Shown here: positions 5,883 to 18,164 of the stretch, piece after piece
Layout: the number at the start of each line of letters is the position of its first letter
How positions within the stretch are numbered: the stretch's first letter is position 1
Assembly: GCA_029548865.1 (NCBI GenBank)
Contig: JAKPMO010000024.1
Location: forward strand, 1-64,000
DNA length: 64,000 bases
Direction: 5' to 3'
Source of the DNA: Caldisericota bacterium
GTDB lineage: Bacteria; Caldisericota; Caldisericia; JAAYUI01
Position numbers and translations under genes: made by a program
Notes under the pieces: model-generated
Told to the model about the DNA's origin: nothing
The model's input: the letters and a program-made list of their open reading frames with translations, nothing else
The model's database searches: none

Positions 5883-5964
5883 TGCACTCTCCAGTCGTAT
5901 TTTTTAACCCTTTGATTTTCCAACAGAAAGTGATTTATGTCAACAAAGCCAAATCCTTTCTTTA

Positions 5965-5994
5965 TTGACATTATGGTCACTGGATGGTTAGAAT
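5965..5994 (+). promoter_or_regulatory. sigma70-type promoter for rpmH operon
   Basis: TTGACA-18nt-TAGAAT upstream of GGAGG (6011) and the rpmH ATG; a second TTGACA on the minus strand at 5938-5943 probably serves ppdK. Confidence 0.7.
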
Positions 5995-6023
5995 CTAACG
6001 ACATTGTATTGGAGGTATTTATT

Positions 6024-6161
6024 ATGCGCACACATATGAGACCACACAATCGCAAGCGTCTTCGCGTCTCTGGCTTTAGAACTAGGATGAGAACGAGAGG
6101 TGGAAGGGCCGTTTTGGCTCGCAGGAGAGCCAGGGGTCGTTGGAGAATTGCCATTTCATGA
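6024..6161 (+). CDS. rpmH: 50S ribosomal protein L34
   Basis: 45 aa, Arg-rich: MRTHMRPHNRKRLRVSGFRTRMRTRGGRAVLARRRARGR; GGAGG RBS; precedes rnpA. Confidence 0.95.
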   Translation: MRTHMRPHNRKRLRVSGFRTRMRTRGGRAVLARRRARGRWRIAIS

Positions 6162-6607
6162 AACTCCCCCATCGCTTAACGGCGGGGCAGATCCACAATC
6201 TTTTTAAATCAGGTTCATCGGTGTACTCAAAGGCCCTCAGGATAGTTTATCTGGAGGGCCTTGAATCTGGTGGCGCAGTATCTTACATCTCACCAAAAAG
6301 TCTTGGGAAAGCACACACAAGAAACAGGGCAAGGAGACTTCTACGGGAGGCTTTTGTATTATCTGAAACATGTGTCGACAAAAACATTGGCATAGCAATA
6401 ATTGCAAGGACGTCAGTACTGGGGATGGACCCGACTCAACTATCTTCCGAAATATCAAAACTGATATCACAGATGCATTCAAAGAAGCATTATCAGTCCC
6501 ACTCCTGTTCTCCATATCAGTCTACCGGACGCTCATCTCACCAATCATCCCTTCACGCTGCATCTACACCCCAACATGCTCAAAATATGCCTATGACGCA
6601 ATTTTAA
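6158..6607 (+). CDS. rnpA: Ribonuclease P protein component, with about 40 aa C-terminal tail overlapping yidD
   Basis: KSLGKAHTRNRARRLLREAF (RNR motif); ATGA overlap with the rpmH stop. Confidence 0.9.
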   Translation: MKLPHRLTAGQIHNLFKSGSSVYSKALRIVYLEGLESGGAVSYISPKSLGKAHTRNRARRLLREAFVLSETCVDKNIGIAIIARTSVLGMDPTQLSSEISKLISQMHSKKHYQSHSCSPYQSTGRSSHQSSLHAASTPQHAQNMPMTQF

Positions 6608-6699
6608 AATATGGACCAATAAAGGGTGGCTTCCTAGCCATCAAAAGAATCCTAAGGTGCAGGCCAGGAATGCCAGGCGGATATGATCCGGTTCCTTAA
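6370..6699 (+). CDS. yidD: Membrane protein insertion efficiency factor YidD (start uncertain)
   Basis: YRTLISP...CIYTPTCSKYA..AILKYG...RILRCRP..PGGYDPVP; homology begins near 6487 but the only in-frame ATG is at 6370. Confidence 0.9.
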   Translation: MCRQKHWHSNNCKDVSTGDGPDSTIFRNIKTDITDAFKEALSVPLLFSISVYRTLISPIIPSRCIYTPTCSKYAYDAILKYGPIKGGFLAIKRILRCRPGMPGGYDPVP

Positions 6700-6711
6700 A
6701 AAGGAGTATTA

Positions 6712-8238
6712 ATGAAAAAGATAGCAGCAATATTGGCGATAACACTTCTGACCATCTGGCCGGTTGCCGGTTTGGTATCAGGAGCTCAACTCTCAGTCAA
6801 ATTCAGCACGTCTGTTGAGGCATTGGCAGGGAACAGCAGTATTGTTCCAGTAGAAGTAACAAACACCGGCAGCGAACCAATTGAAAACGCATTTGTTACA
6901 ATAGCTTCTTTTGATGGCAAACCGCTAGGTCTGGAGTCGGGTGCCAGGTTAGTACAAGGTTCGCAGGAAAAAATAGGCATCCAGAGAATTGATGCAGGCA
7001 GCACCGAGAAAATAAAATTTCAGATCGAATTTTTGTCATCCCTAAAATCTGGTATCAAAAAAATTACATTCTCTCTCGAGTCAAATGGCCAAACAGCCAC
7101 TGGCGAATCGGAAATCAATGTCAACGAAAACCTCAATCCGCCGAGCACCAAAAAAATTATTGTAAGCTCAGACGCCGAGAGCTATCCAAACAGCAATTTC
7201 ACTTATACGGTCAAGGTTGAAAATCCAAAAAGTGACAGTGACGGCGTAATGGACATGGTTGACCTGAAGGTCGAGCTTCTGTCGATAAATGGAAAACAAC
7301 TCAAGGAATTCACAGCGGAAGAAGCCAAAAAAGATAGTTTTTTCAGGCCAATTTTCAAAAGCTCGCTCGTGGTTTCACCAGACAACCCGGAAAGAAAGCT
7401 TGCCCCTGGTGATTCTTTCGAAGCAAAATTCATGCTCGCAACAGGACCAGACATTGAGCTTGGTTCATACAAGGCAAAAATAAAGATAACCTGGCAACCG
7501 GCAGATACAAAACTGCCAATGCAGACAAATGAGATCGAAGGAAACATAGAAGTCAAGCAGGTCACCTGGTACACATTTGCAGTCAGGTGGGTCATTGATG
7601 GTCTTGCAAAAACGGTTGGGTTTGGCAATTATGCAATTACAATAATCATCTTCGCATTGCTTGTTAAGCTGTGCTTCTGGCCGCTCTCAAATGCCCAATT
7701 TAAAAACATGGAAAAGATGGCCAAGATACAGCCACTTCTGAATGCACTCAAACAGAAATATCCAAGAAAAGAGGATGCACAGAAGCTCCAGGAAGAGACG
7801 ATGGCCATCTACAAGGAAAATAATGTCAATTTCCTTTCCGGGTGCCTCCCACTTCTAATCCAGCTCCCAATCGTCATGGCCCTCTATTCCGGAATAAGCG
7901 GATTTGCTCCACTCAACTATGCCAATTTTATCTGGCTTCCTTCGCTTGGTCTTGCAGATCCATTCTACATCATGCCAATCCTTCTTGCGGCTTCTACATG
8001 GCTCCAGCAAAAAGTTTCTACGATGCCAGGACAGGATCAGCAGAGTGCGTCATTCCAGATCATGTTCCCGGCAATGATGTTCCTCTTCGGCATCAATTTC
8101 CCATCAGGCATCTCTCTTTACTGGTTCATGTTCAACCTTGCCTCTATAATCCATCAAATGGTCTATAATAAAGGAGCCTTTGGAAAATTCATTCCAACAG
8201 GAATCATTAAACCAGTTTCAAAGGGAATAAAGAAATGA
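6712..8238 (+). CDS. yidC: Membrane protein insertase YidC with N-terminal signal and two Ig-like domains
   Basis: C-terminal core: KLCFWPL, KIQP, GCLPLLIQLPI, DPFYIMPIL, PSGISLYW; gene context. Confidence 0.93.
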   Translation: MKKIAAILAITLLTIWPVAGLVSGAQLSVKFSTSVEALAGNSSIVPVEVTNTGSEPIENAFVTIASFDGKPLGLESGARLVQGSQEKIGIQRIDAGSTEKIKFQIEFLSSLKSGIKKITFSLESNGQTATGESEINVNENLNPPSTKKIIVSSDAESYPNSNFTYTVKVENPKSDSDGVMDMVDLKVELLSINGKQLKEFTAEEAKKDSFFRPIFKSSLVVSPDNPERKLAPGDSFEAKFMLATGPDIELGSYKAKIKITWQPADTKLPMQTNEIEGNIEVKQVTWYTFAVRWVIDGLAKTVGFGNYAITIIIFALLVKLCFWPLSNAQFKNMEKMAKIQPLLNALKQKYPRKEDAQKLQEETMAIYKENNVNFLSGCLPLLIQLPIVMALYSGISGFAPLNYANFIWLPSLGLADPFYIMPILLAASTWLQQKVSTMPGQDQQSASFQIMFPAMMFLFGINFPSGISLYWFMFNLASIIHQMVYNKGAFGKFIPTGIIKPVSKGIKK

Positions 8239-8726
8239 GCAATGGCAATAACCAGAAAAACACAAAGATGCAGGAAGTCCAAGTAAAAGACTTCCTTATG
8301 GAATTCATCCCCGAACTCTTCAAAAATATGGGGGAAGATGCGCATGTTAGGGTATCAAAAGAAATAGACACCATGTTCGTTTCCGTCGAACTGGACGACC
8401 CTGCAGTGTACATCGGAAAATCCGGGGAGTGCCTCGCTTCCCTCCAGTTCATCATCAATATGATCCTCCAGCGCAAGGAGTGGAACGCAGTCAGAATCAC
8501 CCTTGATATTGGCGGATACAAAAGACGCCAGATTGACATCCTGAAAAACATTGCCCAGAATGCCGCCCTCAAAGTCAGGCGTTTCGGAAGACCGGTAGAA
8601 CTCCAGCCAATGTCAGCGTTTGCAAGGCGCATCATCCACACAACCCTGAAAGACAATCCCTCGGTATTCACACATTCAATTGATGAAGAGCCGAGACGAA
8701 GGGTTGTAGTCGACCTAAGGAAGTAA
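8235..8726 (+). CDS. jag: Jag/KhpB/EloR RNA-binding protein (KH + R3H only)
   Basis: IGKSG KH loop, LQPMSAFARRIIH R3H motif; downstream of yidC. Confidence 0.9.
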   Translation: MSNGNNQKNTKMQEVQVKDFLMEFIPELFKNMGEDAHVRVSKEIDTMFVSVELDDPAVYIGKSGECLASLQFIINMILQRKEWNAVRITLDIGGYKRRQIDILKNIAQNAALKVRRFGRPVELQPMSAFARRIIHTTLKDNPSVFTHSIDEEPRRRVVVDLRK

Positions 8727-9932
8727 TTGGAAACAATATTTGCCCAGGCAACAGCCCCGGTACCACAAGCAGTCGGAATAATAAGGATCTCCGGGGACAA
8801 TGCCTTTGATATAGCAGAAAAGATAATTCCCGCCGGGCTCCCTGATGCCGGTAAATTCGGCTTCAGGGATGTCACTAACGAAGATGGTGAAAAACTTGAT
8901 TCTGGGGTTGTGCTAGTATTCAAGTCACCCAATTCCTTCACCGGTGAGGATGTAGTAGAAATACAAGTTCACGGCAGTCAAGCAGTCATAAGCAAAATCC
9001 TTTTGATACTTGCACAATTGGGTGCAAGACAGGCCAAACCTGGTGAATTTTCAATGAGGGCTTTTATGAACGGAAAAGCTGGCCTTGCTGATCTTGAGCT
9101 TGCCAATGCCCTCGCTAACTCCACAGATGCCTCAAGAGGACTCCAGCCTCAACTCGAGGAAATAAGGAATGATCTTCTCTTTATTATTTCGTCTCTGGAG
9201 GCCTCCATCAGTTTTCCAAATGATGTCAGTAACGAGGACTCCGCAAAAAAGCAAACCACAAACCTTCTTTTCAAGATAAAATCCCTATTGGGCTCATGCT
9301 CAAAACCTGGATTACCAAGAGTTGTCCTCGCAGGACCTCAAAATGCTGGCAAATCAACGCTTTTTAATTTCATTCTTGGTTTTGAAAGAACAGTCACATC
9401 AGATACTGCAGGCACAACAAGGGATTGGGTGCCACAGACAACAAAGATTGCCAGTAGAACAGTCGAGCTTGTGGACGGGCCCGGTTTGAACGGCTCTTCG
9501 GATGCAGGACAATCATCTTTTAGAAAATTGTTTGATTCGGCTGACTGTATCGTCTGGCTTGACCCTTCCGCAGTAAGGCCAGAATTTGCCGATGGGAGAT
9601 TTTTAATGGTGCAATCACAATCTGACAGGGAAGGGTTCCCAGCTCAGCGAGGCTGGCTTCGTGTGTCAGGTAAATATGGTTTAGGAATAGAAGAGCTTTA
9701 TAAAAAGATACTGCAAGTCCTGGGTCAAAGACCTTTTGCTGCAACAGAGAGGCAGATGTCACTTCTTGCTATCATTGAGAATTCAGTTACATCAGCGCTT
9801 GAGTGCCAGACCGATGATGCGATGGCTTTTGAGCTTTCATCTGCTTTCCAGACAATGTCCGAGCTTGATGGCATCGGCGCATCACAGGAAGTCCTTGAAT
9901 CAATTTTTTCCAGTTTTTGTATCGGAAAATGA
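8727..9932 (+). CDS. mnmE: tRNA modification GTPase MnmE/TrmE (short, divergent)
   Basis: TIFAQAT, IIRISG, SFTGEDVVEI..HG, GEFSMRAFMNGK, GPQNAGKST, GTTRD, C-terminal FCIGK; TTG start. Confidence 0.9.
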   Translation: METIFAQATAPVPQAVGIIRISGDNAFDIAEKIIPAGLPDAGKFGFRDVTNEDGEKLDSGVVLVFKSPNSFTGEDVVEIQVHGSQAVISKILLILAQLGARQAKPGEFSMRAFMNGKAGLADLELANALANSTDASRGLQPQLEEIRNDLLFIISSLEASISFPNDVSNEDSAKKQTTNLLFKIKSLLGSCSKPGLPRVVLAGPQNAGKSTLFNFILGFERTVTSDTAGTTRDWVPQTTKIASRTVELVDGPGLNGSSDAGQSSFRKLFDSADCIVWLDPSAVRPEFADGRFLMVQSQSDREGFPAQRGWLRVSGKYGLGIEELYKKILQVLGQRPFAATERQMSLLAIIENSVTSALECQTDDAMAFELSSAFQTMSELDGIGASQEVLESIFSSFCIGK

Positions 9933-10925
9933 CCGGCTCGCATAAAAACCATTAGGGAGCTTTATTACAAGTCCTTTTATATCAAGAACCGTGATTATCC
10001 CCAACAACGCTTCCGCATTCAGGTCAGTCTTGTCACATATTTCATCAATCCTGCATGGTACCGCACAAGCCAGCAGAATAGCTTTTTCTGTTTCACTTAA
10101 AGATTCATCAGTATAAAGGGTTGTCTTTCCATACAAAGACAGAACATCTGAAGGTGAATCTACAAGCAAAGCACCATCTTTGATAAGCTTATTGCAACCC
10201 TCAAAATTCTGCATGCCAGGAAGTCCAGGACAAGCCAGTACATACCTTCCCAAATCCAGCGCATCCCTAGCTGTTATCAATGCACCGGATGACTTCGGAG
10301 CTTCGATAACAAGGCAAGCCTTTGAGAGGGCAGCAATTATTCTGTTTCTCCATGGGAAAGTCCATCTATCACCTGGAAAATTGGGTGGAAACTCTGAAAC
10401 AATGGCACCCTTTACTGAAATCCTCTTTTTGAGCTCCCTTTGCGTCGCACTTCTGGCCTGGTTTATCCCACACCCAAGAATAGCGATTGTAGGTTTGTCG
10501 GTATCAAGAGCTCCCCAGTGTGAAGCTGAATCAATCCCATCCGCCATCCCAGAAACCACGACAATCCCTGTTTTTGAAAACTCAAAAGCCATATTTCTGG
10601 CAATTCCTATTCCGTGTGGCGAGGCCTTTCTTGTCCCCACCATCGCAATAAGGTCCTGGGTTTCAGGAAGCCCACCAAAAACAAAGAGTGCCGCTGGTGG
10701 GCACTCTAGGTCAAAAAGGTTTTTTGGGTATCTCTCGTCATCCTGGCAAACAAATTCAATGCTCGATGACTTGATTTCAGAAAGACCGGTACTTATGGCT
10801 GTCTCAATCTCCTGCTTGCCAAAATCTTTCAGTATTTCCTCTGGCCCTTTCTCTTTCAATTTTCCCAGGGCCTGCGGTTTCGAGGCAAGCAAATAAGAGA
10901 TAGCCAGCCAGTAATTCCTTTCCAC
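9900..10925 (-). CDS. dprA: DNA-processing protein DprA
   Basis: AMVGTR, VSGMADGIDSASH, FPWRNRIIAALS, SGALITA, GCNKLIKDGA; start placed at GTG 10925 overlapping the upstream TAG. Confidence 0.95.
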   Translation of the reverse strand: MERNYWLAISYLLASKPQALGKLKEKGPEEILKDFGKQEIETAISTGLSEIKSSSIEFVCQDDERYPKNLFDLECPPAALFVFGGLPETQDLIAMVGTRKASPHGIGIARNMAFEFSKTGIVVVSGMADGIDSASHWGALDTDKPTIAILGCGINQARSATQRELKKRISVKGAIVSEFPPNFPGDRWTFPWRNRIIAALSKACLVIEAPKSSGALITARDALDLGRYVLACPGLPGMQNFEGCNKLIKDGALLVDSPSDVLSLYGKTTLYTDESLSETEKAILLACAVPCRIDEICDKTDLNAEALLGIITVLDIKGLVIKLPNGFYASRSFSDTKTGKN

Positions 10926-11182
10926 TAAAGTTTTTTCTGATAGTTGTATGTTAGAACGGCAAGGCCGGTAAACAGCAACATGGTGCCAAAAAGCACCACA
11001 ACCCATTGCTGGAGACCATTATATTTCAGGAGCGGCTTGAGACTTGATGCAAGCCCTACTTTGTCTATTCTTGCGGCACTCTGCATGCCATCAACCAGCT
11101 CGAGCGTCATTATCGCAAGAAAACAGCCAAGTGCAATAAGAACAAGCAGCACCATTACTGCGGTTATTTTCTCTTGCTTCAT
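10925..11182 (-). CDS. Small 2-TM membrane protein, possible accessory subunit of the Rieske/cytb-Flx complex
   Basis: 85 aa with two hydrophobic helices; ATGA overlap with the upstream gene and GGAG RBS. Confidence 0.7.
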   Translation of the reverse strand: MKQEKITAVMVLLVLIALGCFLAIMTLELVDGMQSAARIDKVGLASSLKPLLKYNGLQQWVVVLFGTMLLFTGLAVLTYNYQKKL

Positions 11183-11436
11183 TTTTTCTCCTTTGAGAGC
11201 CACTTGTCAAATAACTTTACTCTTTTGACTACCTTTCCCCTATGGTCTTCTGAGGCGTACATTCCAAAAACCAGAAGAAACATCATGGCCAAAAAGATGA
11301 GGCCAAAAGCGACAAGCTGGACAAAACCGAATGGACCCAGTTCTCCCAACACCTTTGCTGTCTGGACGAGTTGTGCAAGCGAAAGCACGCCAACCAGCAG
11401 GGCCAGGATAAAAATCAGGGTCCATTCATTTTTCAC
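11179..11436 (-). CDS. Small 2-TM membrane protein, possible accessory subunit of the Rieske/cytb-Flx complex
   Basis: 85 aa, two hydrophobic helices and basic C-terminus; GTGA overlap with the cytochrome b stop. Confidence 0.7.
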   Translation of the reverse strand: MKNEWTLIFILALLVGVLSLAQLVQTAKVLGELGPFGFVQLVAFGLIFLAMMFLLVFGMYASEDHRGKVVKRVKLFDKWLSKEKK

Positions 11437-12905
11437 AGACTTTTTACTCCAAGTGCAAGGGCCTTTTCAGCCTTCTTTTTTATAACCCTTCTCCTCCACA
11501 CATATTCAAGGAAGAAGGCAAGAGCAAACACAAACCCATTGAAGAGGAGTATAGTGTATATGTATATATTCCTGTCGGCATCCTTGAATGGTATCCAGTA
11601 AGACGCCAGAGAGCCTATTAGGAAGAAGGTGAGGCCACCAATCGCAAGCGTTGTGTAGGCCGGCCTTCCGGAGGCATTTCGTTGCTCCCTCCTGTCAATC
11701 CACGGAAGGGCAACAAGGAACACGATAAATAACACCGTCAGCAATGGCCCAATGGCACCAGGCAAGAACTTGAGATAGAAATAAACAAACAGAAAGTACC
11801 AGTCTGGCAAGATGTGGTCGGGTGTCTTGACTGTGTTTGGCGGTGGCTCACTGATTGCAGGCAAATACAATATTGCACCAATTATAACAATCGCCAATAT
11901 GGCAAACATGACCCAGTTGAGTTTCGGGCGTTTTTTCCTCGACCTGATAAAATACAACTCTGCGGCGAGGAACATGGCGATTGGCAACAGGTAATGCAAT
12001 ATATTGAACCTTAGAATTGTCGTCTGGCCAACCTGGTGTGCACCAAGACCAATAAACTTGAGCGCGGCACCCAAGCCCAAAGGACCAATACCAGGCAGAA
12101 GATCAACAGTATCAAGCATCTGCGTTCCTACTGTTGTTGCCCAATAAGACCTCTGGTCAAACGGAAGAAGGTAACCGGTTACACCCGAGAATGTTGAAAT
12201 GCAGACAACCAGCGTTGCAATTATCCAGGTTAGTTCTCCTGGTTTTTTGAATTCACCATTGAAATACATCCTAAGCCAGCGAAGCATGAGCAACGCGATG
12301 AAGCAATATGCACCATATCTGTGTATTCCTCTTATCGTTCTGGTTACTGGATTGCCAGAAATGTCTGCAACAGATATGTACGCTTTTGATACAATGACTC
12401 CAAGGTCAGCAACAATTTCTTCCGGGGTTTTGCCTTCCATGGCCAGTATATCCTTGCGCTGGCTGGTTATCGTTGCCCACTTGGTATCAACAAGAGCCTT
12501 TTCTGCATCTGTTGTAAGGGCGGCCTTTTCCTCGTCGCGCTGGGTAATCTCTTCCTGCGTGAGGAGCTCGTCCTCGGTCATCTCGCCAGCATCGATTTTT
12601 ACCCTGAATTCCTCTGCTTCCTTCATTGCCCCTTCAATCGTAAGTCCATGTCCATACATGACTTTTGAAGGATCAACTTTCTCAACAGGCGAGGTGTCAG
12701 GAACATAATAAAATGTCAGCACAATGCCAACGACCACCTGAAGGATGAGGAGGATGTAGAGCATGCCACCAATCCAGTAGAATGGATTTGATTTTTTCTT
12801 TTTTGGTGTCTCTTCATCGAAGATATTGACCTTGAGGCCTCTTATCTTCCACCATCTTGTCCACGATTTTGTCAAGCCGTCAAGCCAGTTTGCAAATTTG
12901 TCCAT
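11433..12905 (-). CDS. Cytochrome b of Rieske/cytb family (8 TM), Qo site retained, heme bH ligands lost, about 100 aa insertion
   Basis: NPFYWIGG, IRGIHRY, TGYLLPFDQRSYWATTVG, RFNILHYLLP, HILPDWYFL, LPWID; GGAGG RBS. Confidence 0.93.
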   Translation of the reverse strand: MDKFANWLDGLTKSWTRWWKIRGLKVNIFDEETPKKKKSNPFYWIGGMLYILLILQVVVGIVLTFYYVPDTSPVEKVDPSKVMYGHGLTIEGAMKEAEEFRVKIDAGEMTEDELLTQEEITQRDEEKAALTTDAEKALVDTKWATITSQRKDILAMEGKTPEEIVADLGVIVSKAYISVADISGNPVTRTIRGIHRYGAYCFIALLMLRWLRMYFNGEFKKPGELTWIIATLVVCISTFSGVTGYLLPFDQRSYWATTVGTQMLDTVDLLPGIGPLGLGAALKFIGLGAHQVGQTTILRFNILHYLLPIAMFLAAELYFIRSRKKRPKLNWVMFAILAIVIIGAILYLPAISEPPPNTVKTPDHILPDWYFLFVYFYLKFLPGAIGPLLTVLFIVFLVALPWIDRREQRNASGRPAYTTLAIGGLTFFLIGSLASYWIPFKDADRNIYIYTILLFNGFVFALAFFLEYVWRRRVIKKKAEKALALGVKSL

Positions 12906-12914
12906 TCTGGCCTC

Positions 12915-13763
12915 CTAAAAAGCCGCCGGCATTGCGGCGATCTGGGCTGATGTGAACACCGGGCCGTCCTGGCAGACGTAGTTGTGTCCAACATTGCATC
13001 TTCCACATTTTCCGCAACCGCAATTCATTCTGGCCTCAAGAGAAGCAAAAATCTTGTCTTTTGGGAACCCTATCTTGTCCAGACCAATGAGGGTGAACTT
13101 AATCATCACTGGTGGCCCTGATATTACAACTGCAGTGTTCTTGAAACCTGGGTCAATTTCAAACAGCAATTTTGACCTATTCTTGAAATTTGGATCATAA
13201 TACTGCCCGACAACACCAACATCTTCTTTCCATGTGCTGTCACCTTTGTCGCATGATCTCTTTACCTCAACATCTTTTACTTTTGCCCATTCAAAAATCT
13301 TGTTTTTAAAGACTTGATCGGCGGGTGTTTTCGCACCATAGAGTATCTCTATCTTGCCGTAGTCAGACCTTTTGTCGAGGGAATAGGTGAGCATGTTGCT
13401 GATGGCAGAGAAGCCAACGCCACCGGCCATATAGCTGATGTTCATTCCCTTAAGTGCGTCCTTCGGGAAGCCATTTCCATAAGGGCCCCTCAAAGTGACC
13501 CTGTCGCCAACTTTCATTCCGTGGAGCTTCTCGGTCACTGCGCCAACTTTCATGATGGTCAGCTCAAGGTGTTCCCTCTTTGTTGGAGTGTTGCCAATGG
13601 ATATCGAGCAGTCGCCAACACCTGGAATTCCAATTATGCAAAACTGGCCAGGGTTATAGTCAAAATTCCCGCCATCCCTTTTGATGTAGAAAGTTTTGAT
13701 ATTTGGCGTTTCCTGCTCGATTTTTTCAATTGTGGCCATCTCTGGCAGATACGGGTTCATCAC
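12915..13763 (-). CDS. FAD/NAD(P)-binding [2Fe-2S] oxidoreductase, FlxA/AsrB/HydG family
   Basis: PGQF, RGPYGNGF, AGGVG, LYGAK, GPPVM, MNCGCGKCGRC...VCQDGPVF. Confidence 0.92.
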   Translation of the reverse strand: MMNPYLPEMATIEKIEQETPNIKTFYIKRDGGNFDYNPGQFCIIGIPGVGDCSISIGNTPTKREHLELTIMKVGAVTEKLHGMKVGDRVTLRGPYGNGFPKDALKGMNISYMAGGVGFSAISNMLTYSLDKRSDYGKIEILYGAKTPADQVFKNKIFEWAKVKDVEVKRSCDKGDSTWKEDVGVVGQYYDPNFKNRSKLLFEIDPGFKNTAVVISGPPVMIKFTLIGLDKIGFPKDKIFASLEARMNCGCGKCGRCNVGHNYVCQDGPVFTSAQIAAMPAAF

Positions 13764-14785
13764 AGCGCACCTCCCAGGGTCTTTAGTGTTTCTGAAAGCG
13801 AGATTCCTGCTGGACAGAGGTCAGAACACCTTCCGCATCCAGTGCAGGCAATTTCTCCGTAGAGTGTCATGTGGTACTGGTACTTGTCCAGAATTTTGTT
13901 TCTGTAGCGCGCGGCAACATCGGGCCTTGGGTTGTGGCCAGAGGCCTCAAGCGAATAGACCGTGAAATGGCAAGAATCCCAACACTTGTCTTTGTTGCAG
14001 GAAGTAGCACCAGTTTTGCGGTCTCTCATTTCGAAGCAGTGGCAAGTTGGGCAGAAGAACGTGCACACGCCGCAGGAGATGCAACCCTGGCTCACCTTTT
14101 GCCAAATCGGGGATTCATAGAGTTTCATGTACTGGCCAGCTTTTGAGGTGTCCAGTTTGAAAATCATCATCGACTCGCAGGCCTTTTTGACTTTTTCCTG
14201 GGTCGCTTTGGCATCTCCACCATCTTCAAATACGGATTTGTTGGCCTCTATAAAAGATTTTCCCTTTTCAGTTGAAACAATGACCTGATAGGAATCACCT
14301 TCCGGAACCAGGAGAATGTCGGAGCCAGCTTCAGAGGCGGGGTGGATTCCAAGCGACGAGCAGGCACATGTTGAGAGCGGTTTTTCACAGGCAATCGCAA
14401 TGATGAGAGTTTTGTCCCTTTTGTCTTTCCAGTATGGGTCTTCAAACGGCTGTTTGCCACCATCCTTGCGGTCCCTTGCAAGGAAGAAATTGTCCAGTAT
14501 CTGGATGCCCCTGGCATCACATGGCCTGACCCCGAAAAGGATGGCCGGTTTTGAGGTATCTGCCTGATGAACCTTGTCGTCTTCTACTTTGTATATCAGT
14601 TCGGTTTGTGGAAAGATCACTTCTTTGGCTGGTGTTGCAGTCCTTATAGTTTTGAGGTCAATCGATTTTATATCTTCAATCCTCTTGAAGTTTGTGACCG
14701 CACCGTTTTTTTGTGGGGCATAAGCAACATGGGTCTTTCTCGATTCATCAATCAGGGAGAGCATTTTTTCTTTTTTGATTTTCAT
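13760..14785 (-). CDS. 4Fe-4S protein, FlxB/AsrA/HydB family
   Basis: FGVRPCDARG, CISCGVCTFFCPTCHC, CWDSC, CTGCGRCSDLCP; ATGA overlap and GGAGG RBS. Confidence 0.92.
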   Translation of the reverse strand: MKIKKEKMLSLIDESRKTHVAYAPQKNGAVTNFKRIEDIKSIDLKTIRTATPAKEVIFPQTELIYKVEDDKVHQADTSKPAILFGVRPCDARGIQILDNFFLARDRKDGGKQPFEDPYWKDKRDKTLIIAIACEKPLSTCACSSLGIHPASEAGSDILLVPEGDSYQVIVSTEKGKSFIEANKSVFEDGGDAKATQEKVKKACESMMIFKLDTSKAGQYMKLYESPIWQKVSQGCISCGVCTFFCPTCHCFEMRDRKTGATSCNKDKCWDSCHFTVYSLEASGHNPRPDVAARYRNKILDKYQYHMTLYGEIACTGCGRCSDLCPAGISLSETLKTLGGAL

Positions 14786-15777
14786 GCCCACCTCCCCAAC
14801 ACTTCTTCAACTTTATAAAGGGCCAGCGGTGTTTTTGCCTTGTCGCTGATTCCAGGTTCAAAGTCCCAAGTTGTTTTTGTCATATAGCCAATCTGTTCTG
14901 TTATTAGATTGAGCGGGATATTCTCAGGGCAGGCCCTTGCACATTCACCACAATTTGTGCATCTGTCAGAAAGGTGGAAATAATGGATGAAATGGTATGT
15001 CAAGATTGAGGCAAGAGAGGTTCCCTTCTGGAGATATGGTTCGGGTAACTTTGGATGGTCCATGATGCAGTTGGTATTGCAGTAACAACCCGGACAGGCA
15101 TCCCTGCAAGCAAAGCACATCGTGCACCTTGAAAGCTGGGAAATAATGTATGCTCTGCGCTCCTCAAAAGGCTTCTGGAGATAAGATTCCATCCACTTTT
15201 CCCAGTTCTTGGTAGGTTTTTTCGGCATGTCATCGGGTAGCAGTTCGTCAACCTCGAGTGCTGATGTATACGGGCAGCGAAGGCACCTTGGGTCATAGTA
15301 ATCTGATTTCACCAGATCGACTTTCTTGCCATCGAGCATTTCTACATGCAATGTTGTTCCGTCATCAGTAATATTTTTGATGTCAGAATCAAGGCCTGAC
15401 CTGACAAGATCAATATCAATGGTGCCGGGGCACTTTACGCCAATAACCCAGAGATTGTCTCTATCGACTTTGTTTTCTGCAACGTTGGCCAGAAGGTTCC
15501 TAGAATCACAGCCTTTGACCATGACACCGAACTTCTGCCCCTTTTTAAGCTCAGGGACATAAAAGGTTTTCCCACCAAGGAGTCTCGAAAGATTCTCTCT
15601 TGAGAAGGAGTTGAAAATCAGAAGGTCTGCTTCTTCATGGGTAGTAGCGACAAATGCTCTGGTTTTTCCAGGCATATCAGCGACTTCCCTCCAGCCGAGG
15701 AAACCAGCAATTTTCCCTGACTTTATGGCTTCTTTTACAATATTCCTGAAATAGGCGAGGGTTTTTTCTGTCATCAT
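14782..15777 (-). CDS. 4Fe-4S protein, FlxC / FdhB-FrhB-C-terminal-like family
   Basis: VKGCDSR, GVKCPG, CLRCP, CTMCFACRDACPGCYC...C, HLSDRCTNCGECARACP. Confidence 0.88.
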   Translation of the reverse strand: MMTEKTLAYFRNIVKEAIKSGKIAGFLGWREVADMPGKTRAFVATTHEEADLLIFNSFSRENLSRLLGGKTFYVPELKKGQKFGVMVKGCDSRNLLANVAENKVDRDNLWVIGVKCPGTIDIDLVRSGLDSDIKNITDDGTTLHVEMLDGKKVDLVKSDYYDPRCLRCPYTSALEVDELLPDDMPKKPTKNWEKWMESYLQKPFEERRAYIISQLSRCTMCFACRDACPGCYCNTNCIMDHPKLPEPYLQKGTSLASILTYHFIHYFHLSDRCTNCGECARACPENIPLNLITEQIGYMTKTTWDFEPGISDKAKTPLALYKVEEVLGRWA

Positions 15778-16181
15778 GCTTCCACCCCCATGCTGTCGAG
15801 TTTGCGCTTCATTGCAGAAATTTCTCTTGTCAAAACACCGTAATCAAGAGGATCTTTTTGAATATAGGAGAGCCTCTCTGGGTCAACACCGAGAGCCTCT
15901 GCAACTGACTGTGCTGCAAAAATCCTGCGCTTTGCGAACATGTTTCCATCAAAATTGTGGCAATCGTTGAGAGGGCAACCATAGATGATGATTGCTCCAA
16001 CACCTTCCACAAGGGCCTTGAAGGCAACAACAGGATTGAGTCTGCCTGTGCAGGAAAGCTTTACAAAGCCAACTTCAGGAAATTTGTCTTTGTGGTTTTC
16101 AAGGTCTTTGCCTTTCAGAGCCGATTCACAATGGAAAACTATTATTTTTCTTTTGATCGGGAGATCTTCTATTGAAGGCAT
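15774..16181 (-). CDS. MvhD/FlxD-like [2Fe-2S] protein
   Basis: IIVFHC, LSCTGR, GCPLNDCH..GN..AKRR, LGVDPERL; four Cys. Confidence 0.9.
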   Translation of the reverse strand: MPSIEDLPIKRKIIVFHCESALKGKDLENHKDKFPEVGFVKLSCTGRLNPVVAFKALVEGVGAIIIYGCPLNDCHNFDGNMFAKRRIFAAQSVAEALGVDPERLSYIQKDPLDYGVLTREISAMKRKLDSMGVEA

Positions 16182-17233
16182 AGGCCTTTTACCTCCTCGA
16201 GTATGACTTTGTTCTCGAAACCTTCTAAGTCAATGACCTGCGGTAAACAGCCAGCAACACAGATTCCACAAGCCTGGCATTTTTTTCTTACAACAAAAGC
16301 AACATCTTTTGTCTTGTTCCTGGATACATTGAATTTCTTTTGTGTTATCGCGTTCTTTGGGCAAAGCGTGATGCAGGTAAAGCACCCAGAACAACGGACA
16401 GGATCAACAACAGCGGCTGTTTTAATCTTCCTGCCAAAGAATGGCAACGCAATCAGAACTGCGATGAGGAACCCCCAGGCACTTGCTGCAATGGTGGGAC
16501 TGCCGAGTCGTATAGTGAACAGCCCTATCCAGTCGAAAACATATTTTCCAGCCTTGAGATCTGTTTTGCCAGCGATTGGGAACAAGCCAACAATCACGGC
16601 AAGAACTCCAAGGAAAATCAATGAGAGGGCAAATGTTGGGATAACTGGCGGTCTGGAAATCCTGGCAAAATGCCATACAAGAAGAGCGAAAACAAGGATT
16701 GGAGCTCCAATATGAAATGCCCTGTAAATGACAAGCAGGGCAACCTCCGTTATCTGGCCTCTTCCAAAAAATTTGAGTATTTCAGATGCTCTTCCATCCA
16801 TCGGAAGAATGTAGCCTGTTATGGTTATAAGTACTGTGAACACCAGCAATGCAACGCCGACAAACCATCCAACCGATCTGGTGCTTGTATGCCTCTGGGC
16901 AAAAAGTTTTCTGAGCATGTGTGCTGCAGCAAAGAGAATCATTGCATCAGCGGCATACCTATGGAGCGTCCTTATGAAAAGGCCATATGGTATTTTGTCC
17001 GACATGATATACATGATCGACTTTTGGGCCTGGTCCAGAGACGGCATATAGAAGAAACTCAGGACAAAACCTGTCAATATCTGGATGAACAGCAAAAGGA
17101 AGGTTATAGAGCCAAGGCTGTTGAGAATGTTGATCGATTCAAAACCTGCCTTTAGGACATCAAAAATTCCCAATGTCCCATTTATGAGAAAATTCAACGG
17201 CTTAAAAGGGCTATAGGATTTGCTTGGGCTCAT
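16169..17233 (-). CDS. Diheme cytochrome b fused to C-terminal 2x[4Fe-4S] ferredoxin; Qo site degenerate
   Basis: Four His (IRTLHRY, AAHML, AFHIG, VWHFA; two pairs 14 apart), TGYILP; CSGCFTCITLCP and CQACGICVAGCLP; start placed at MSPSK. Confidence 0.92.
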   Translation of the reverse strand: MSPSKSYSPFKPLNFLINGTLGIFDVLKAGFESINILNSLGSITFLLLFIQILTGFVLSFFYMPSLDQAQKSIMYIMSDKIPYGLFIRTLHRYAADAMILFAAAHMLRKLFAQRHTSTRSVGWFVGVALLVFTVLITITGYILPMDGRASEILKFFGRGQITEVALLVIYRAFHIGAPILVFALLVWHFARISRPPVIPTFALSLIFLGVLAVIVGLFPIAGKTDLKAGKYVFDWIGLFTIRLGSPTIAASAWGFLIAVLIALPFFGRKIKTAAVVDPVRCSGCFTCITLCPKNAITQKKFNVSRNKTKDVAFVVRKKCQACGICVAGCLPQVIDLEGFENKVILEEVKGLCLQ

Positions 17234-17235
17234 AG

Positions 17236-17793
17236 TCACACCTTTTCCACTGTTATTGCACCAGAACCTTGATCCCATTCCACTTTCCAGGGTTTAAGGG
17301 CTGATGGAGGCGGGCCTGCAATGACATTTGCGGTCACTGGGTCAAAGAAACCGTCATGACAACGACAGTGCCAGTTGTTCGAAACCGAGTCCCAGTAAAT
17401 AACGCATGCAAGATGGGTACATTTTGCATCCCAGGCGTGGAGTTTACCTTCCTTGTCCTTGATCAATATTCCTGGATTGCTGATCTTTACTGGTTTAGTT
17501 GGAATCGAAGTGTCGATAGTGACAATTTCAAATGAATAGCCAAGCATTTCTTTCATCGAGTTGTAGTTAGCTTCAACATCCGCAAAGCTTGTCCCGCCAC
17601 CGGCAAGCATTGGTTCTCTCATACTCGAGAGAACAACCCTCGCTACAGATGGTGGTGGAATTGCCAGACCAAGTTTACCAAAAGGCTTCAATAACCTTAG
17701 TACTGGTGAAATCGCCCCTGCGAGCAAGCCCAGGAGCGGCAAGCCTAGAAGGACCTTGAGCAATTCTCGTCTTGTAACCTCTTTTTGACTCAC
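17236..17793 (-). CDS. Rieske [2Fe-2S] protein with Tat-type membrane anchor
   Basis: TRRELLK plus hydrophobic helix, CTHLAC, CRCHDGFFD, GPPP; GTG start with GGAGGA RBS. Confidence 0.95.
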   Translation of the reverse strand: MSQKEVTRRELLKVLLGLPLLGLLAGAISPVLRLLKPFGKLGLAIPPPSVARVVLSSMREPMLAGGGTSFADVEANYNSMKEMLGYSFEIVTIDTSIPTKPVKISNPGILIKDKEGKLHAWDAKCTHLACVIYWDSVSNNWHCRCHDGFFDPVTANVIAGPPPSALKPWKVEWDQGSGAITVEKV

Positions 17794-17827
17794 GCTGTCC
17801 TCCGAATTGAGAATTTGCATAGACTCA

Positions 17828-17856
17828 AAGTTAATACGACAATTTGTTTAAGTCAA
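17828..17856 (-). promoter_or_regulatory. Putative sigma70 promoter of the Rieske/cytb-Flx operon
   Basis: TTGACT-17nt-TAACTT, about 35 nt upstream of the Rieske GTG. Confidence 0.55.
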
Positions 17857-18111
17857 ATTAGAGTTTATTTAACGATGCATTCAAAACAACACTGGTTTTT
17901 TGATGACTTCATAATTAAAGGTTAAAAAATTCGGTTAAGAAAGGTTTTTCCAAATAATTTGTCAACAACAAAGAAAACCAACTTCCAATACATTTTTTTG
18001 GACTACCCTAAAATATAAAAAGAGAACTATATTTTTATGCAAAGAATGAAATCCTGTTAAATACCACATTTAATTGTGGGGATAAGGAATGAATTCAGGT
18101 TTGAGAAAAAT

Positions 18112-18144
18112 AAAAAACCGGGGACTTTTTTGGCCCCCGGTTTT
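18112..18144 (-). terminator. Intrinsic terminator after groEL
   Basis: AAAACCGGGG...CCCCGGTTTT hairpin followed by a T-run on the minus strand. Confidence 0.85.
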
Positions 18145-18164
18145 CTGTTCCAAACTTGTCAAAA

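Follow-up and report, generated by a model that had tools for sequence, protein, structure and literature searches.

How might a Rieske/cytochrome b complex be connected to NAD(H), and in which direction would its electrons run? This question is raised by an operon of a Caldisericota bacterium (GenBank assembly GCA_029548865.1). The stretch of DNA analyzed (the window) comprises the first 64,000 nucleotides (nt) of contig JAKPMO010000024.1, which is the start of contig C17 in the genome carrying it (G000; 1.8 Mb, 93% complete). The operon codes for a Rieske protein, two cytochromes b and homologs of the FlxABCD proteins. It appears to combine a widespread, uncharacterized heterodimeric core with a captured Flx module, which would result in a complex III-like assembly to which a cytoplasmic NAD(H) arm is attached. 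It is highly probable that the gene products form one membrane complex, in which a heterodimer of the two cytochromes b is wired to NAD(H) through a ferredoxin domain, MvhD and FlxCBA. Its mode of operation is assigned with far less confidence. We tentatively prefer an NADH-fed asymmetric Q-cycle in which electrons leave by way of the Rieske protein.

The operon and its conservation

Nine open reading frames (ORFs) follow each other on the minus strand (10925-17793), with gaps between neighbours of -13 to +9 nt. They code for the Rieske protein, b-1 (a cytochrome b of 354 amino acids (aa) with a ferredoxin domain), MvhD/FlpD, FlxC-like, FlxB-like and FlxA-like proteins, b-2 (a 490-aa cytochrome b) and two small hydrophobic proteins. 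Pfam and NCBIfam returned Rieske, cytochrome b plus 2x[4Fe-4S], FlpD/MvhD, Fe-S proteins, a HydB/AsrA-like protein, a HydG/AsrB-like FAD/NAD protein and a full cytochrome b; the two small proteins matched no family. An earlier note on this DNA, made from the letters alone, had listed nine genes with overlapping or abutting ends and had assigned most of them to these families, as is borne out here. It had also pointed out that the soluble genes (mvhD, flxC, flxB and flxA) are located between the two cytochrome b genes, so that this is not a pair of adjacent operons. The same order is found in relatives.

The gene order is real and conserved and is not a matter of chance. b-2 was matched in 23 of 61 relatives and in 25 of 93 genomes of the phylum. 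It occurs in three families, designated f1 (11/11, including G000), f5 (13/13) and f6 (1/2), and is not matched in four others (0/67; f2-f4 are among the families without the operon). Among the 22 positive relatives, the operon locus was retrieved from 19. In 14 of these 19 loci, the seven core genes follow one another without interruption and in identical order; the other five are cut by contig ends, and their visible part agrees. The two small hydrophobic ORFs follow b-2 in 8/8 f1 loci and in 8/8 f5/f6 loci inspected. Since the neighbouring genes vary among the families, the nine genes are the unit.

In the operon, mvhD-flxC-flxB-flxA follow the b-1 gene in the same way as they follow hdrA in canonical hdrCBA-flxDCBA operons. 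Canonical operons were found in four of nine HdrA loci retrieved from relatives (G014, G026, G042 and G049). In G014, the Rieske-linked and the Hdr-linked Flx sets are 28-33% identical, and FlxC from the window is 31% identical to the Hdr-linked FlxC of that genome. Given this identity and the separate hdr-flx operon in four relatives, the Rieske-linked set is considered a dedicated paralogue. Flx genes are found inside the operon throughout the three families, at 26-39% identity. In a tree of MvhD (56 rows, 134 columns, long branches), the operon protein groups with the Hdr-type and not with the cytochrome-b-linked sequences (99/97), a placement that may hint at the capture of a whole flxDCBA cassette. 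A tree of FlxB did not resolve a single origin of the Rieske-linked copies. The relatives of the FlxC-like protein in PDB are FdhB subunits. In FlxA, a conserved Asp is found at the alignment position where NAD-using PyrK also has Asp and NADPH-type HydG has Arg; this Asp may be a sign of NAD(H) preference.

The operon lacks the HdrA flavin domain, HdrB and HdrC; instead, a ferredoxin domain forms the C-terminal part of a cytochrome b (b-1). The top non-cytochrome PDB match of this C-terminal domain is to residues 551-649 of HdrA, which is the stretch located before MvhD in fusions of HdrA and MvhD (NF040770 matches). Together with the order of the Flx genes behind b-1, and with fused cytochrome b-ferredoxin-MvhD proteins found elsewhere, this match supports the earlier proposal that a membrane arm has replaced HdrABC. 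The accompanying statement (no HdrABC and no cytochrome c) is correct for the operon, in which no c-type cytochrome is linked to the Rieske gene. It does not extend to the genome, which codes for HdrABC-Mvh, Ccm proteins and secreted CxxCH proteins. The operon also lacks a NiFe or siroheme catalytic subunit beside its HydB/HydG-like pair.

The Hdr locus of G000 (hdrCB...hdrA-mvhDGA, C19:227-238 kb) has two MvhD genes of its own plus a hydrogenase. It has no FlxC, and the only FlxC of G000 is that of the operon. A complete group 3b hydrogenase (hydBGDA), with its own HydB/HydG pair, is encoded on C20. The gene content of the Hdr locus (G000:C19:227878-238470, L060) is hdrC-hdrB, NADH-oxidoreductase-like, 4Fe-4S, MvhD-like, a 1014-aa HdrA, mvhD, mvhG, mvhA and protease genes. 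In two relatives, G014 and G049 (L194:4336-13339, L199:1591-11049), genes resembling fumarate hydratase are located together with hdrA, hdrC, hdrB and a flavoprotein/Fe-S pair. By inspection, such a cluster has the appearance of a soluble module for thiol-linked fumarate reduction.

Two unequal cytochromes b

In b-2, the inner-heme His of helix B is replaced by Arg (Arg209) in 19/19 Caldisericia copies. The inner-heme position of helix D is occupied by Tyr in 17 of them (Tyr318 in the window) and by Phe in 2, and a Glu two residues before this position (Glu316) is invariant (19/19). The outer-heme ligands His195 and His304 and an intact cd loop are retained, and PDWY is present in 19/19. b-1 has all four heme His in 17/17 Caldisericia copies. 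None of these contains P(D/E)WY, the cd loop is shortened, and CxGG is not present. The protein with the quinol-oxidizing (Qo) motif thus has two heme His rather than four, and the four-His protein has no Qo motif. By their ligand patterns, b-1 and b-2 are complementary half-functional copies, and the complementary losses are invariant.

We predict a heterodimer of the two, with three hemes in all and a Qo site on b-2 only, in which electrons would have to cross between the outer hemes. Such transfer across the dimer has been proven with cross-inactivated bc1 (PMC7908018). The same paper calls the purpose of inter-monomer electron transfer in complex III unclear. In the Caldisericia complex, the sequence suggests that this transfer is obligatory.

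An AlphaFold model of b-2 from a relative (31 sequences, predicted local distance difference test (pLDDT) 88.0) has the bc1 cytochrome b fold, with a TM-score of ~0.7. For b-2 of the window, modelled with 8 sequences, pLDDT was only 52.6. Between helices A and B (residues ~70-175), b-2 has an acidic helical insertion, which is on the outer side by homology. It is ~100 aa long in the window and ~300 aa in other f1 genera, and it is absent in f5/f6. That the insertion is a built-in cytochrome c was rejected, as CxxCH occurs in 0/5 long relatives and f5/f6 lack the insertion altogether. It is the best-modelled part of the low-pLDDT window model.

The two-cytochrome-b core extends beyond the phylum. 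A b-1 profile gave 249 clusters at E-values up to 1e-30. Among the best 150 of these 249, four His are present in 149 and P(D/E)W(F/Y) in 1. A fused MvhD domain was found on 6 of 7 long b-1-like proteins scanned. Metagenomes were scanned with 14 non-Caldisericia b-1-like queries, and the best 80 of 418 confirmed stretches were analyzed (the 80 loci). MvhD is encoded in 69 of them, a second cytochrome b in 46 and a Rieske protein in 44. FlxA, FlxB or FlxC is found in none of the 80, at least 3 kb being visible past MvhD in 36. Among the loci examined, the FlxDCBA insert is seen only in Caldisericia. The operon points, for the first time among these loci, to a cytoplasmic partner (an NAD(H) module) of a widespread uncharacterized core, whose gene cluster has been reported from relatives of cyanobacteria that do not photosynthesize.

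All 46 second cytochromes b have Arg (42) or Lys (4) plus the Glu, with SDWY. In a tree of 51 rows and 161 columns from which the ligand columns were dropped, they and Caldisericia b-2 make up a single clade (96/91). Caldisericia b-1 is grouped neither with the other b-1-like proteins nor with the fused forms in this tree, which counts against a simple common origin. The notion of a Caldisericia-specific b-2 was based on a word-indexed search (Arg pattern in 21 close relatives of 120 listed) and was dropped after the 46/46 result from the metagenome loci. A plasmid search returned only ordinary cytochromes b, at ~25% identity.

The operons of the wider family mostly contain diheme cytochromes c, and a CcoN-like gene is present in 16/80 loci. 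Database names for these loci include Melainabacteria, Cyanobacteriota and Holophagaceae. In L112:10736-12130, L113 and L158, the CcoN-like protein is divergent (~100 bits versus 280-310 in the others) and is encoded downstream of MvhD rather than upstream.

Direction of electron flow

The Rieske protein has kept all ligands, both cluster boxes and both extra (disulfide-type) Cys in 17/17 Caldisericia copies. Its signature after CxCH is G-F in all 17, compared with S-Y in 39 and S-F in 5 of the 44 other loci. A G-F signature corresponds to ~+150 mV and S-Y to >+260 mV (PMC4122944), and the anammox NAD(P)H proposal rests on Rieske potentials of +303 and +335 mV (PMC12954380). With all inputs assumed (quinone -74 to -124 mV, NAD -280 to -320 mV, membrane potential 120-150 mV), we estimate that NAD+ reduction needs an acceptor at +180 to +322 mV versus +10 to +76 mV for the Qo step of a Q-cycle. 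The low-potential signature of the Rieske protein weakens quinol-to-NAD+ bifurcation. The net quinol:NAD(P)+ reaction that the earlier note had in mind has lost ground for this reason, and also because no heme-copper oxidase, bd oxidase, molybdo-reductase or NarI-type anchor was found in G000. A Tat-anchored (twin-arginine translocation) Rieske protein had been noted as well, and this agrees with the motif found (Table 1) and with tatAC in G000. A simple Tat-motif scan of G000 gave 3 matches among 1600 called genes, and the Rieske protein is the only plausible one. In f1, the motif is present on 8/8 Rieske proteins, and TatC in 9/10 genomes. The only TatA match in f5 (L097; G022:C181) is on a short contig of 3.7 kb that lacks tatC, and could result from faulty binning.

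Besides tatAC, G000 codes for menA, menG, ccmABCEF (C9:25-29.6 kb) and an AhbD-like protein (below cut-off). The heme enzyme ALAD was found in 0/5 genomes, so that heme is probably scavenged. Of the genome features to which the earlier note had pointed, menaquinone and tat genes were found, and ALAD of heme synthesis was not. Among further redox systems, G000 has an 11-subunit Nuo beside an F-type ATPase, FixABCX and two GlcDF-like pairs. The complex I operon lacks nuoEFG, and no molybdopterin/NuoG-family match was found in the genome. Molybdopterin enzymes and RnfD were not found in G000. Heme-copper oxidases (COX1 family) and NarI-type anchors were each found in 0/5 genomes, and a bd oxidase was found in 1/5, which is not G000. 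Complex I and FixABCX of f1 are encoded at G000:C16:172395-182123 (L062) and G000:C23:30438-33908 (L201). RnfD is missing from 2 f1 genomes tested; 3 f5/f6 genomes tested have RnfD but no Nuo or Fix. Fix plus Nuo could substitute for Rnf via the quinone pool.

Among 60 relatives, several genes co-occur with the operon, although the relatives are not independent, so that the counts effectively compare three families with three. MenA-like proteins are found in f1 (10/10), f5 (11/11) and f6 (1/2) and in 0/37 genomes without the operon (only 3/61 are above the curated cut-off). CcmF-family proteins are present in f1 (10/10), f5 (10/11) and f6 (2/2), and in 0/37 without the operon. NuoA (10/10) and FixC (9/10) occur in f1, and they and TatC were found only there. 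In f5/f6, NuoA and FixC are both 0/13, GlcD-type proteins 3/13 (weak) and NarI-type anchors 0/3. NapH-like proteins were rejected as quinone partners, as they are present in families without MenA (f2 11/14, f3 8/9, f4 5/14).

Three secreted proteins with a single CxxCH and cell-surface-type domains (G000:C19:51.4-54.8 kb) are candidate surface cytochromes by their motifs. They are conserved in f1 (9/10 and 10/10). Their genes (G000:C19:51417-54785, L059) adjoin dnaN-recF, and the surface domain is of the copper-amine-oxidase type; a related domain starts a 691-aa Ig-repeat protein (G000:C28:611-2686, L107). A 900-aa gene beside the f5/f6 operon was rejected as acceptor because it has no CxxCH. 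At the DNA level, the CxxCH pattern was matched 105 and 176 times in two f5 genomes, irrespective of reading frame, and these counts are not informative.

In the proposed complex, b-2 would provide the single Qo site and one outer heme. b-1 would provide both its hemes and the cytoplasmic ferredoxin domain, which may dock MvhD in the manner of HdrA, and MvhD-FlxC-FlxB-FlxA would extend the chain to FAD and NAD(H). The paired outer hemes would be the electron path between the two cytochromes b. In the Q-cycle, electrons from NADH would pass via FlxABC and MvhD into the ferredoxin domain and on to the inner heme of b-1. Menaquinone would be reduced there with protons taken from the cytoplasm. 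Menaquinol would be oxidized at the Qo site of b-2. One electron may then pass to the low-potential Rieske protein, to c-type cytochromes encoded elsewhere and to an outside acceptor, and the second would return across the dimer. The net reaction would be that of a proton-translocating NADH:external-acceptor oxidoreductase, in a fermenter without an NADH-accepting complex I. We favour this mode, with some hesitation, over four others, because of the G-F Rieske protein, the acceptor estimates, and f5/f6, which have MenA without other quinone reductases being found. The complementary losses in b-1 and b-2 fit both this Q-cycle and NAD+ reduction. f5/f6 keep the operon and MenA without NuoA, FixC or NarI-type anchors, so that no other quinol source was found among the families tested. 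A complex that both reduces and oxidizes its quinone would explain the retention of MenA there.

A number of points weigh against such a Q-cycle. Its main weakness, to judge from the residues of b-1, is that no quinone-reducing (Qi) site is recognizable: there is no CxGG, no His at +5 after the last heme ligand and no Lys-Asp at the start of helix E. The residues looked for besides CxGG are those of the bc1 Qi site (His/Asp/Lys), and b-1 may have an unconventional site. No terminal reductase was found in G000 among the oxidase, molybdo-reductase and NarI-type families searched. HdrA is present in all 24 genomes of the operon-bearing families (f1 10/10, f5 11/11, f6 2/2 and G000) and in 0/37 others. 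In f5/f6, quinone might also be reduced by NDH-2, GlpD, SQR or succinate or proline dehydrogenase, which are outside the families searched. The c-type cytochrome domains of G000 were matched only in f1, and f5/f6 show a lone CcmF-like gene. Moreover, f5/f6 Rieske proteins lack the twin-arginine motif (0/9, one cut at the start; L039:11393-11926, L040, L042-L045, L047, L048 and L050), and TatC is found in 0/13 genomes, which leaves an outer-side Rieske protein in these families without explanation. Free NADH:quinone activity in G000 would short-circuit FixABCX. It has been argued that energy is wasted when NAD(P)H serves to replenish the pool of quinol at a site of this kind (PMC12954380). As a side observation, the CcmF-like proteins of f5/f6 have ~720-750 aa, and ccmC/ccmE do not adjoin their genes in four loci (L098:7770-10010, L099:9384-11546, L100:4047-6260, L101:8951-11125).

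The strongest competitor, which we regard as unlikely, is quinol:NAD+ bifurcation without a Qi site. One electron from Qo would leave via the Rieske protein, and the other would pass via the three hemes, the ferredoxin domain, MvhD and Flx to NAD+. A Qi-less heterodimer, in an organism that is strictly anaerobic and has no oxidase, would couple menaquinol oxidation to NAD+ reduction via the captured Flx module, with the other electron going to surface cytochromes. The lack of recognizable Qi residues in b-1 and the single linear chain from Qo to FAD fit this. The same is true of the inventory of G000, with several likely menaquinone reductases (the 11-subunit Nuo, FixABCX and the two GlcDF-like pairs) and no other quinol oxidase found, and the logic is that proposed for anammox (PMC12954380). 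It is at odds with the low-potential Rieske signature and the high-potential acceptor estimated above, none being identified, and with f5/f6, for which a quinol source was not found among the families tested. If it were true, the complex would be a natural counterpart of the laboratory cross-inactivated bc1 dimers, and in the sister families the Rieske subunit would reach its site without Tat.

The reverse, confurcating direction uses identical wiring. NADH and an outside electron, delivered via cytochrome c and the Rieske protein, would reduce menaquinone at Qo, and the quinol would be drained by reverse complex I or Fix. In strongly reducing surroundings the Rieske protein would rest reduced, and Nuo and Fix exist in f1. 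This direction is improbable, as it would spend membrane potential and redox energy in an electron-rich heterotroph, and as f5/f6 have neither Nuo nor Fix and hence no quinol sink found there.

Slightly less credible still is a non-bifurcating or degenerate wire, with a structural or regulatory Rieske protein and the assembly acting as a membrane-anchored NADH:menaquinone or NADH:ferredoxin oxidoreductase. The lack of TatC and of the twin-arginine motif in f5/f6 would be accounted for, as would the absence of a terminal acceptor enzyme among those searched. The strict conservation of the Rieske ligands with the extra Cys (17/17) and of PDWY (19/19) speaks against it, as do the Tat motif of the G000 Rieske protein and the retention of tatAC.

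We give least credence to separable modules, with FlxABC serving HdrABC-Mvh elsewhere and the membrane arm using MvhD and free ferredoxin as in lineages without linked Flx: the distribution of HdrA, the location of the sole FlxC of G000 and the 80/80 other loci without Flx would suit this, but the Flx genes stay in the operon across three families, relatives have a second Flx set beside hdrA, and the Hdr locus of G000 has its own MvhD genes and hydrogenase.

Under the NADH-fed Q-cycle, which we retain as the working reading, these fermenters may respire with an outside acceptor. The earlier note had held that direction cannot be read from the sequence, and this still applies. With this operon, anammox is joined by a second test case, this one of low potential, for the question whether electrons can be passed between a Qo site and NAD(H).

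Known relatives and surroundings of the operon

The earlier note had named the anammox complexes as the closest concept. A closer relative is the complex III-IV operon of Melainabacteria/Vampirovibrionia and others, which shares the Rieske protein, the inner-heme-less cytochrome b, small membrane genes, the cytochrome b-ferredoxin protein and MvhD. Small subunit 1 has homologs among the small genes in the corresponding position of Melainabacteria-type operons (BLAST E-values 8e-7 and 1e-7 for two such genes, 0.13 for a third). Those operons have the diheme cytochromes c and CcoN-like genes mentioned above, S-Y/S-F Rieske proteins and SDWY, with no Flx seen. In contrast, the Caldisericia operon has no oxidase, no linked cytochrome c, a G-F Rieske protein, PDWY, the inserted FlxDCBA and a different gene order. 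The cluster has been described as "petB, petB, petC" beside a C-family oxidase (PMC6349859), and Soo et al. 2017 is quoted for it in bioRxiv 10.1101/531145. The missing heme ligands and the MvhD of the core are not mentioned in the accessible portions of PMC6349859, in 12 of its 29 supplementary files or in those of bioRxiv 10.1101/531145.

With FlxABCD-HdrABC, the operon shares the protein families and the flxD-C-B-A order downstream of a gene whose product ends in a ferredoxin domain of the HdrA type; it lacks hdrABC, and its ferredoxin domain sits on a cytochrome b. The FlxABCD-HdrABC system and its mechanism were reportedly described by Ramos et al. in 2015. Group 3b hydrogenase and Asr sulfite reductase share the HydB/HydG-like pair; their catalytic subunit is not in the operon. 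Canonical bc1/b6f complexes share the fold (judged from the model of the relative's b-2), the Qo motif and the bc-type Rieske protein. Their cytochrome b forms a homodimer in which every monomer carries four heme His and a Qi site, and they have a linked cytochrome c1 or f.

The anammox complexes (Kuste4569-74, Kustd1480-85) also combine a Rieske/cytochrome b arm with a cytoplasmic Fe-S/FAD NAD(P) module, and their Qi site is doubtful too (PMC12954380). They differ by a short b6 homodimer plus subunit IV, heme cn, one large oxidoreductase, multiheme c and the high-potential Rieske proteins, whereas the Caldisericia complex has two unequal long cytochromes b, no CxGG, a Flx-type module and the G-F signature.

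b-1 plus MvhD corresponds to the domain string of the PDWF-FeS clade (PMC4122944) or subfamily H (PMC5600118), split in two. These are reported without linked Rieske protein, and their function is unassigned. The likeness is shown for the architecture, and the sequences do not point to direct orthology. Four-His proteins without Qo are assigned to subfamily H in PMC5600118, whose Fig. S1 contains no His-Arg-His-Glu row. Clade G' of that paper was rejected as the family of b-2, since its entries in this figure all have four His. The cytochrome b survey of PMC4122944 excluded sequences lacking any of the four His, so that the b-2 family would have been hidden.

By the features tested, the Caldisericia complex falls outside the canonical, anammox and Flx-Hdr families. 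No Flx-linked Rieske/cytochrome b complex was found in the literature searched, which did not include Soo 2017, ten Brink 2013, Dibrova 2013 and Ramos 2015, in line with the earlier note, which knew of no version built on Flx. A search joining Caldisericia and Rieske found nothing.

Table 1. Features of the operon and of its upstream region (window coordinates).
Feature	Position	Strand	Remarks
Upstream intergenic, presumed promoter region	17794..18111	-	Between groEL hairpin and Rieske gene
Rieske [2Fe-2S] subunit, 185 aa from GTG start	17236..17793	-	TRRELL twin-arginine anchor; CTHLAC and CRCHDGFF boxes
Cytochrome b-1, 354 aa	16169..17233	-	Heme His 91, 105, 174, 188; C-terminal 2x[4Fe-4S] domain
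MvhD/FlxD-like [2Fe-2S] adaptor	15774..16181	-	Cys 18, 44, 69, 74 kept
FlxC-like Fe-S protein, FdhB-related	14782..15774	-	Two [4Fe-4S] motifs
FlxB-like Fe-S protein	13760..14785	-	HydB/AsrA family
FlxA-like FAD/[2Fe-2S]/NAD-binding subunit	12915..13760	-	HydG/AsrB/PyrK family
Cytochrome b-2, 490 aa	11433..12905	-	His195/His304, cd loop, PDWY 367-370
Small hydrophobic subunit 1, 85 aa	11179..11436	-	Without conserved His
Small hydrophobic subunit 2, 85 aa from ATG behind ribosome-binding site; open frame from 11203	10925..11182	-	

Upstream of the operon is groEL, followed by a strong terminator-like hairpin at 18112-18146. A promoter scan upstream of the Rieske gene gave 8 promoter-like matches versus 10.1 in shuffled sequences, which is chance level. 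Three metatranscriptome runs contain 55-72% of the sampled words of the operon, and contigs from these runs span most of it (one 10727-13285); this indicates presence in RNA libraries only, and DNA carry-over is possible. Sequences of these fermenters are found in sludge samples.

Directly downstream is dprA (9900-10926), and the operon adjoins a rpmH-rnpA-yidC-jag-trmE block (5937-9932); in f5, it adjoins dnaN-recF. Both gene sets are commonly located near the replication origin. YidC encoded beside the operon has a long N-terminal extension.

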